Shown here in pieces: positions 10,942 through 58,611 of a stretch of 64,000 nucleotides of DNA. The stretch comes from Octopus vulgaris (taxonomy: Eukaryota): contig OX597828.1 of NCBI GenBank assembly GCA_951406725.2, positions 24,056,001 through 24,120,000 on the forward strand, given 5' to 3'. The notes beneath the pieces were generated by a model that saw nothing but the letters and a program-made list of their open reading frames with translations, made no database searches and was not told the DNA's origin. Both the position numbers and the translations under genes were made by a program. Each line of letters begins with the position of its first letter. Within the stretch, counting starts at the first letter, position 1.

Positions 10942-11371
10942 CATGTATTTTGCAATTCACACTAATGTAGAATATGACATTTTATTCAGACAATTAGATT
11001 ATACTCAGTAATTCTTATGGATATACAAATTATCTCATCGATAAGTCAGTATGCACATAATTTACTTTTAAATTACAGTTCTGTCATTACATTAGCACTT
11101 AACTTACAATTTCATCTTACAAATATAATTTCATATCTCCCATATAATAGCATCTACTCTAGAATATCTCTCGCCGTACTTAATTATGACTAAAACTATT
11201 TACTGGTTTTCTTCATCCAGACACCGTAAGTAACAATACAGACACAATTACAATAACAAGACCGAACCGACTTCAATCATTTCAAAACACTGAGTATTTA
11301 TAATAACATAATTCCCAAATCACATTTCCCTTTTAATATATAATTTACACACCACAGTTATATATATATAC

Positions 11372-11411
<40 letters not shown>

Positions 11412-11534
11412 ATTGAGTAGTTGAATGAATTATCTTATTATGGATAATTCGGTTAACTCATTATCGCTATGGGCTCCGTTTGGGCAGGCATCTAAAAATT
11501 TTTGTGCATCTTGATGCTGACATAAGTTCCTAAC

Positions 11535-11617
11535 TTTTCCTGATGAGAAGGCGGCATAATGCACCCCTTATTACTTCGAAATTAGGAATATGCAGCCTTC
11601 GAAACATATGTCGAAAA
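11535..11617 (+). ncRNA. Intact type I hammerhead ribozyme
   Basis: ttttc-CTGATGA-gaaggcggcata...tatgcagccttc-GAAA-catat-GTC-gaaaa: 5-bp stem I, long stem II, palindromic ACATATGT stem III, GUC cleavage triplet. Confidence 0.9.
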
Positions 11618-11659
11618 TAAAATAAAGGAATTTTGTTAATTCGTCGTTCAACTCCATTC

Positions 11660-11714
<55 letters not shown>

Positions 11715-25533: not shown

Positions 25534-25860
<327 letters not shown>

Positions 25861-47838: not shown

Positions 47839-47850
47839 TAAGTGTGAGAC

Positions 47851-47968
47851 GCTTACAGCACCTAGGTTTCCCAATCGGTCAGCCGTATACGTACCCACTA
47901 GGCCGGACGTTGCTTACCTTCGGTGATCGGACGAGAACCGGTGCCTTCAACGTAATATGGCCGTATAC
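47851..47968 (-). rRNA. Full-length 5S rRNA copy (variant gene or pseudogene)
   Basis: GTATACGGCCATATTACGTTGAAGGCACCGGTTCTCGTCCGATCACCGAAGGTAAGCAACGT...GACCGATTGGGAAACCTAGGTGCTGTAAGC, 118 nt, colinear with metazoan 5S; no oligo-T terminator. Confidence 0.9.
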
Positions 47969-58446: not shown

Positions 58447-58611
58447 CCGTCTTCCCTTCCTTGGACCTTTCCTTTGTCTATGTTTCTGACGAAGAGGTCC
58501 GCTCGAAACGTTGAATCCTCCTCTCTTTCCTTTCGTGAGCGTCCGATAACTTTATACTTGTTCCGTGTCCCCGCATTGTTGTTTTTTCTCTTTGTTCATG
58601 TTTGGATTAAC
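58447..58611 (+). mobile_element. Second copy of the 2445 hammerhead repeat
   Basis: gtttCTGACGAagaggtccgctcGAAAcGTTgaat at 58482-58516; the flanks align with 2445-2613. Confidence 0.75.

Follow-up and report, generated by a model that had tools for sequence, protein, structure and literature searches.

The question raised by this locus is what a unit of about 250 bp, lying between two (TA)n tracts and holding a hammerhead ribozyme motif, represents in the genome of Octopus vulgaris, and whether its ribozyme is likely to act. The unit is situated in a stretch of 64,000 nucleotides (contig OX597828.1, forward strand), which is referred to here as the window. The first-pass annotation, made from the letters of the window, had compared it with a retrozyme monomer or a solo terminal repeat of a Penelope-like element (PLE). 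The current analysis makes it very probable that the feature is the 3' end of a young Hydra-type PLE, 5'-truncated and 5'-inverted, residing in (TA)n. Its hammerhead likely derives from an uncut or re-ligated RNA and has a poor predicted fold, its two arms would have been primed at two sites, A and B, of one RNA, and the copy is most likely inert. As a single motif it matters little, being one decaying copy among thousands. The family to which it belongs is a test case for two open points concerning PLEs, namely the origin of tandem and inverted insertions and what directs the targeting of microsatellites.

Read directly off the sequence, a complete type I hammerhead is present on the plus strand, with CUGANGA, GAAA, NUH and three stems all in place (Table 1). 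The full core, G-C first pair, 5-bp stem I, long stem II, GUC and palindrome described in the first-pass annotation are confirmed, as are the (TA)n tracts on both sides, and none of 200 dinucleotide shuffles of the window yielded an equally strong type I motif (stem I at least 5, stem II at least 6, G-C first pair). In the monomer, stem III comprises just 2 bp and a palindromic tetraloop, and the distal hairpin of stem II is damaged by the private A11573. The hammerhead numbering and the role of contacts between loops I and II follow general knowledge. A descriptor search of the window has identified three sites, at 11540, 2485 and 58486, among which 11540 is the most complete. Rfam gave no match to this hammerhead at the gathering threshold or at E<=10, because the stem II insert is long.

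Table 1. Features of the unit and of its hammerhead motif, in positions of the window
Feature	Position	Strand	Read from	Remark
Left (TA)n tract	11359..11408	.		part of target microsatellite
Inverted arm	11411..11457	-		last 47 nt of long 3' end B, +169 to +215 from cut site
Junction microhomology, 2 nt	11456..11457	.		inside the tail's GGTTAACC palindrome
Direct arm	11456..11664	+		209 nt of 3' UTR/pseudo-LTR, -156 to about +52, stops at short end A
Stem Ib 5' strand, internal loop with private A11532, stem I 5' strand	11527..11539	+		
Stem Ib, beyond internal loop	UUCCU 11527-31 / AGGAA 11626-30	+		
Stem I	UUUUC 11535-39 / GAAAA 11613-17	+	sequence	
Core CUGAUGA (C3-A9)	11540..11546	+	sequence	
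Stem II, whole	11547..11600	+		6 bp, 1x1 mismatch, 4-5 bp, pyrimidine-rich bulge, distal hairpin
Stem II, proximal	GAAGGC 11547-52 / GCCUUC 11595-600	+	sequence	first pair G10.1-C11.1
Stem II extension past 1x1 mismatch	GCAUA 11554-58 / UAUGC 11589-93	+		
GAAA core	11601-04	+	sequence	
Stem III palindrome ACAUAUGU	11604-11	+	sequence	8-mer duplex -7.0 kcal/mol
GUC site, C17 = C11612	predicted cut 3' of C11612	+	sequence	
Stem I 3' strand GAAAA and stem Ib 3' strand AGGAA	11613..11630	+		
Right (TA)n tract	11664..11711	.		part of target microsatellite

A search of the octopus' own genome (2.8 Gb) returned 2,681 candidates, and in the 40 that were scored the main arms are 89-99% identical, most of them covering 11456-11664 alone. 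The source is a dispersed young repeat. The direct arm shares an identity of 96-99% with the best sister copies and of 93% with a long copy, L069. The inverted arm is identical throughout (100%) to sister copies read on the other strand, in which it is situated about 113 bases further 3'. The 254-bp unit is two oppositely oriented pieces joined together. The comparison with a PLE terminal repeat holds as far as the relation to PLEs is concerned; the intact solo repeat does not, the unit being a 5'-truncated 3' end with an inverted piece of the far 3' region. The window copy contains none of the ORF of the element and no tandem hammerhead unit is found at the locus, which has a single copy.

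Longer sister copies extend upstream through a UTR of about 600 nt to an ORF, and near-complete copies of about 3.5 kb encode reverse transcriptase (RT) motifs followed by a C-terminal endonuclease (EN). Such copies have the single ORF with PLE-type RT and GIY-YIG by which an EN+ PLE is recognised, and pseudo-LTRs, partial tandems, inverted 5'-truncated copies and a tail at one end have all been observed. The longest open stretches measure 833 and 741 aa; among 30 RT-region loci, 7 of them extended, no frame running intact from start to stop was seen, and the existence of a mobilising protein is therefore inferred from selection. Between two copies, dN/dS is 0.16 for the EN and 0.28 for the RT, which indicates purifying selection (synonymous sites are saturated between lineages), so that the protein of the family probably moved its own RNA.

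The element protein has 424 homologues, the best of them an Argonauta protein sharing 34% identity, which would point to a cephalopod host. It is unrecognised in a local Pfam scan and in a sequence search of the PDB, while Foldseek gave weak GIY-YIG matches and its neighbours in the ESM Atlas include some members with HTH_animal, RVT_1 and GIY-YIG families. A model of the EN of a sister lineage (pLDDT 81.5) aligns with I-TevI over 89 residues (Z 9.3, rmsd 2.4) and with T4 EndoII (Z 8.4). An exact pattern for the ribozyme family has 3,541 matches, some counted twice and spread over several subfamilies, against 0 for the reversed control. At L070:1-822, about 1.2 kb from a near-complete copy, we have also identified an open frame of 274 aa which by eye has the look of an amine-type G-protein-coupled receptor.

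The origin of the unit as a non-autonomous retrozyme monomer, mobilised in trans as a circular RNA of about 250 nt, has to be weighed against this element. Like animal non-LTR retrozymes, as described in the available parts of PMC7229834 and bioRxiv 10.64898/2026.07.22.740005, the unit is a short, AT-rich, non-coding piece with a type I hammerhead and a link to PLEs. Its size comes close to that of animal retrozymes, 170-400 nt (PMC7229834), whose reported origin is in the terminal repeats of PLEs (bioRxiv 2026.07.22.740005). Many short copies of the family share a 5' edge at -143 to -160 from the cut site (about 11456-11470 in the window), a recurrent truncation point seen also in sets that were not chosen on that region. 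However, one hammerhead alone does not allow excision of a monomer, and the unit combines two opposite strands across a junction that is private to it. In contrast to the retrozymes of those two papers, it has a single ribozyme without tandem repeat and belongs to a coding element: its sequence is the 3' UTR of the ORF element, and sister copies continue upstream into the RT/GIY-YIG ORF. The reading is further weakened by the sister arms, whose lengths form a continuum and reach into the ORF. The retrozyme monomer, which the unit resembled in size according to the first-pass annotation, is thus not borne out and is considered very improbable. A locus closer to this description is L097:952-2039, with three direct units of about the last 360 nt of the family (-144 to B), separated by (TA)n and decaying in order; it appears from its sequence to be a retrozyme-like array born from the element.

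Among PLEs, the parent element is most similar to the Hydra clade including Hydra-1_Obim, as it is described in the consulted parts of PMC8557442. Common to both are the single ORF with RT followed by GIY-YIG, the DKT motif, the lack of CCHH, the CxxC and CxH around E and N (CxxC..E..N..CxH in the family), the (TA)n target, a canonical type I hammerhead near the 3' end, inverted 5'-truncated copies and a tail at one end. RWL occurs in the family at the place matching the N-terminal RWK of the clade. The family also differs in its length (about 3.5 kb vs less than 3 kb), its stem II insert (about 42 nt vs loops of 3-10 nt in the Hydra table), its tail (about 160 nt vs 30-40) and the lack of the CxCx5C linker, and the hammerhead of Hydra-1_Obim is different from that of the family. 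Two short probes of the family had no match in the supplement of the same paper, as far as this was available. The assignment to the Hydra clade fits the motifs as compared by eye with reference rows, and not in a tree with labelled references. The parent behaves as a Hydra element lacking one defining feature. Neither an octopus hammerhead of this kind nor a linker-less Hydra element was found described in the literature; Repbase and Dfam lay outside the search, so the element is possibly catalogued there.

The missing feature is a cysteine linker preceding the EN. The CxC-x4-8-C motif upstream of GIY-YIG is present in 118 of the 120 homologues listed, the other two retaining most of it, and CxCx5C occurs in all 9 Hydra rows of Fig. 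S7 of PMC8557442. None of 22 readable rows of the family, representing 17 distinct copies, has the linker. In its place are 138 Asn-rich residues followed by SE.NPNR.KF.S.NSKI. The linker is also missing from two sister lineages, one of which has a short linker region; these share an identity of 68-70% across the EN, and of 61% in its final 59 codons. The segment SE.N[PS]NR.KF.S.NSKI before the GIY strand is common to all three lineages. In the second lineage the Asn-rich linker (L078:185-1283) holds long pure (AAT)n runs, so that it appears to lengthen within the ORF through the expansion of trinucleotides.

All three linker-less lineages lie in TA tracts. According to a suggestion by Craig et al. 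(PMC8557442), the (TA)n bias is mediated by the linker. The linker being lost with the targeting intact argues against such a role, and the purifying selection on EN and RT described above suggests that the linker-less protein was itself the mobilising one. Alternatively, a linker-bearing element may mobilise the linker-less family in trans.

Copies of the family end at one of two sites about 160 nt apart, with A at about +52 to +60 and B at +210 to +215. In tandem copies, the ORF start follows immediately on the stretch that reaches B. The A-B stretch corresponds to the tail which, in the PLE Poseidon PAc of Anolis, is delimited by two start sites of the RT (PMC11167929). Terminal B ends, which are the long ones, adjoin TA-type repeats in 63 of 66 cases, and single-armed copies end at A and B about equally (about 10 each in a hand count).

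Inverted insertions follow a stricter rule. All 62 clean two-armed insertions are A+B, with no A+A and no B+B. The tally comprises 44 distinct insertions called by hand in four sets of loci (the shape of the query favoured four of the 44) and 18 further ones, which are the new cases among 20 obtained from 30 loci selected by the B tail only; it leaves out nine second arms that end at neither A nor B or are unreadable (L086, L089, L096, L137, L139, L187, L190, L193 and the second insertion in L031), the uncalled L066 and L130 and the loci of the third lineage. The tail at one end had already been drawn by Craig et al. (PMC8557442), and what is added here is the strictness of the A+B pairing, which is not described for Poseidon PAc in the consulted part of PMC11167929. 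The tail of 160 nt makes A and B easily distinguished, and the strict pairing constrains the mechanism. The B arms run through A in 32/44 and stop at or before A in 12/44, four of these 12 being among those favoured by the query. A simple fold-back from the B arm as origin of the inversion is impossible for 22/44. Both arms cover the same stretch of RNA in the 32 cases, so that either strand displacement or two RNAs are needed.

Poseidon PAc is a similar system. As reported in the available part of PMC11167929, two fixed internal RT start sites define its tail, the target is AT-rich, neither RNAs nor insertions give any sign of ending where the hammerhead cuts, and the hammerhead is assisted by protein and dispensable for insertion. 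The two starts in the present family differ in their spacing of about 160 nt and in lying ahead of the ORF, and not within it. On this pattern, the GIY-YIG domain would nick both strands of the (TA)n tract, and two RT active sites would initiate on a single RNA, the one at A and the other at B. A first start at A would leave B single-stranded and free, so that the second strand could start at B alone; the cDNA from B would then halt short of A or displace the first cDNA, and the two cDNA ends would join at a microhomology. The hammerhead of the parent would most likely trim tandem transcripts, aided by protein or by a second copy through the palindromic stem III, and would most likely be dispensable for insertion.

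The identity of the element would be the same if the rule of one short and one long arm arose because two RNAs were bound by an RT dimer that is asymmetric, or because the template was circular. The overlap of the arms in 32/44 is consistent with such versions, the B arm of L067 exceeds one unit, the Poseidon protein is a predicted dimer (PMC11167929) and circular templates have been proposed in PMC4209133. Nothing about two independent RNAs would forbid A+A and B+B, and the 12/44 B arms that stop at or before A are as expected if A is already occupied. We regard these versions as possible, on the doubtful side. Sequential priming on one RNA, at A and then at B with displacement, is favoured, at about equal chances with the two-RNA and circular-template versions taken together; the in vitro finding that the start site of the Poseidon enzyme is the same on both strands (PMC11167929) counts against it. 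Only tentatively, and just short of an even chance for the whole, do we propose a cephalopod-type Hydra-like lineage that dropped the zinc linker and still hits (TA)n, with obligatory priming at two sites 160 nt apart on one uncut RNA, one of each, and a long-armed hammerhead that stays inactive until protein or a dimer is present.

The ribozyme of the family has been considered in an alignment of 30 out of 50 extracted segments, after non-element upstream sequence and near-duplicates had been dropped. RNAalifold recovered stems I and II from the 30 sequences, and 7 of the 18 pairs carry changes on both sides. Counted on the named structure, stem II with its extension is paired in 98%, stem I in 91% and stem Ib in 81%; slid controls are paired in 37-54%, as against 89%. 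Two-sided changes occur in stems I, Ib and II, at 3 pairs of stem II with its extension in the 30 sequences; as these are relatives, the cells are not independent and the independent events are few. On this evidence the stems are under selection in the lineage. Variants of stem III keep their self-complementarity across subfamilies, which would fit the dimer folding described for PLE hammerheads in PMC4209133. A pseudoknot, GUGCAU 11504-09 with AUGCAC 11559-64, is attractive in the window copy; it is paired in 68%, with one pair at 7/30, and is not conserved. No other candidate for a contact between loops I and II was identified. The distal hairpin in the register UUCCU/AGGAA is specific to a subfamily (55% paired), and in the register AUUCC/GGAAU it is paired in 88% with zero two-sided changes.

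The hammerheads of PLE terminal repeats described in the consulted part of PMC4209133 are likewise of type I with a long stem II, G10.1-C11.1, a short stem I and a palindromic stem III, and they too occur mostly solo or as opposite-strand pairs from truncated PLEs. The present motif differs from them in having no extra nucleotide between A9 and G10.1, a stem III of 2 bp with tetraloop, a branched and extended stem II and an extended stem I.

The window copy could also be read as an efficient stand-alone ribozyme, cleaving read-through host transcripts. The intact core, the GUC site and the long covarying stems I and II speak for such activity, and invertebrate retrozyme hammerheads with a 2-bp stem III can cleave as monomers (PMC7229834). 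Contigs of four runs guessed to be RNA contain sequence of the family, such contigs being blind to ends and strand; a listing of sequencing runs listed no RNA holder of the family. Compared with 45 family segments, the window copy has three private changes, T11480, A11532 and A11573. A11532 and A11573 stabilise the predicted minimum-energy fold, a misfold that pairs 11527-33 with 11582-88 and buries the core. Adopting the active fold would cost 8.0 kcal/mol, compared with a median of 4.8 in the family, and 36/44 segments score better, in energies that omit tertiary contacts and co-transcriptional folding. The window copy is thus predicted to fold worse than its sisters. Having been rated as the best candidate for activity, the motif keeps that place as the most complete of the three sites in the window; family-wide it belongs among the poorer predicted folds.

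The genome has also been searched for traces of cutting. Exact copies of the 31 nt 3' of the cut site are preceded by C (C17) in 180 cases and by T in 5, and all 5 with T retain upstream sequence. At 12 loci picked for an arm end near the cut site, no arm starts exactly at +1. Genomic copies bear no footprint of cutting, and the templates were therefore likely uncut or re-ligated. Together with the lack of a conserved loop I/II contact, and with PLE hammerheads tested so far being weak or protein-assisted (PMC4209133, PMC11167929), these observations stand against a stand-alone ribozyme, which we consider unlikely. As a solo copy having neither ORF nor partner, the window copy is most likely an inert relic. 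The lack of cleavage as a monomer or as a tandem dimer, which the first-pass annotation had named as refuting its view, does not constitute a clean refutation, since the PLE hammerhead tested with its protein cut only in the presence of that protein (PMC11167929).

Further hammerhead-like sequences have been identified in the current analysis. In a further lineage, at L149:1396-1788, the site is GUA, stem II is a perfect helix of 12 bp and the insertion is again an A+B inversion. The sites at 2485-2511 and 58486-58512 (plus strand) are two minimal PLE-type hammerheads of a different repeat family, with an extra nucleotide after A9, a palindromic ACGU and a GUU site. At 25552-25627, hammerhead-like cores lie head to head on opposite strands beside a CA/TA tract; they failed the descriptor. 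The minus strand of the window also encodes at 47850-47968 a match to 5S rRNA (77 bits) with microsatellites on either side.
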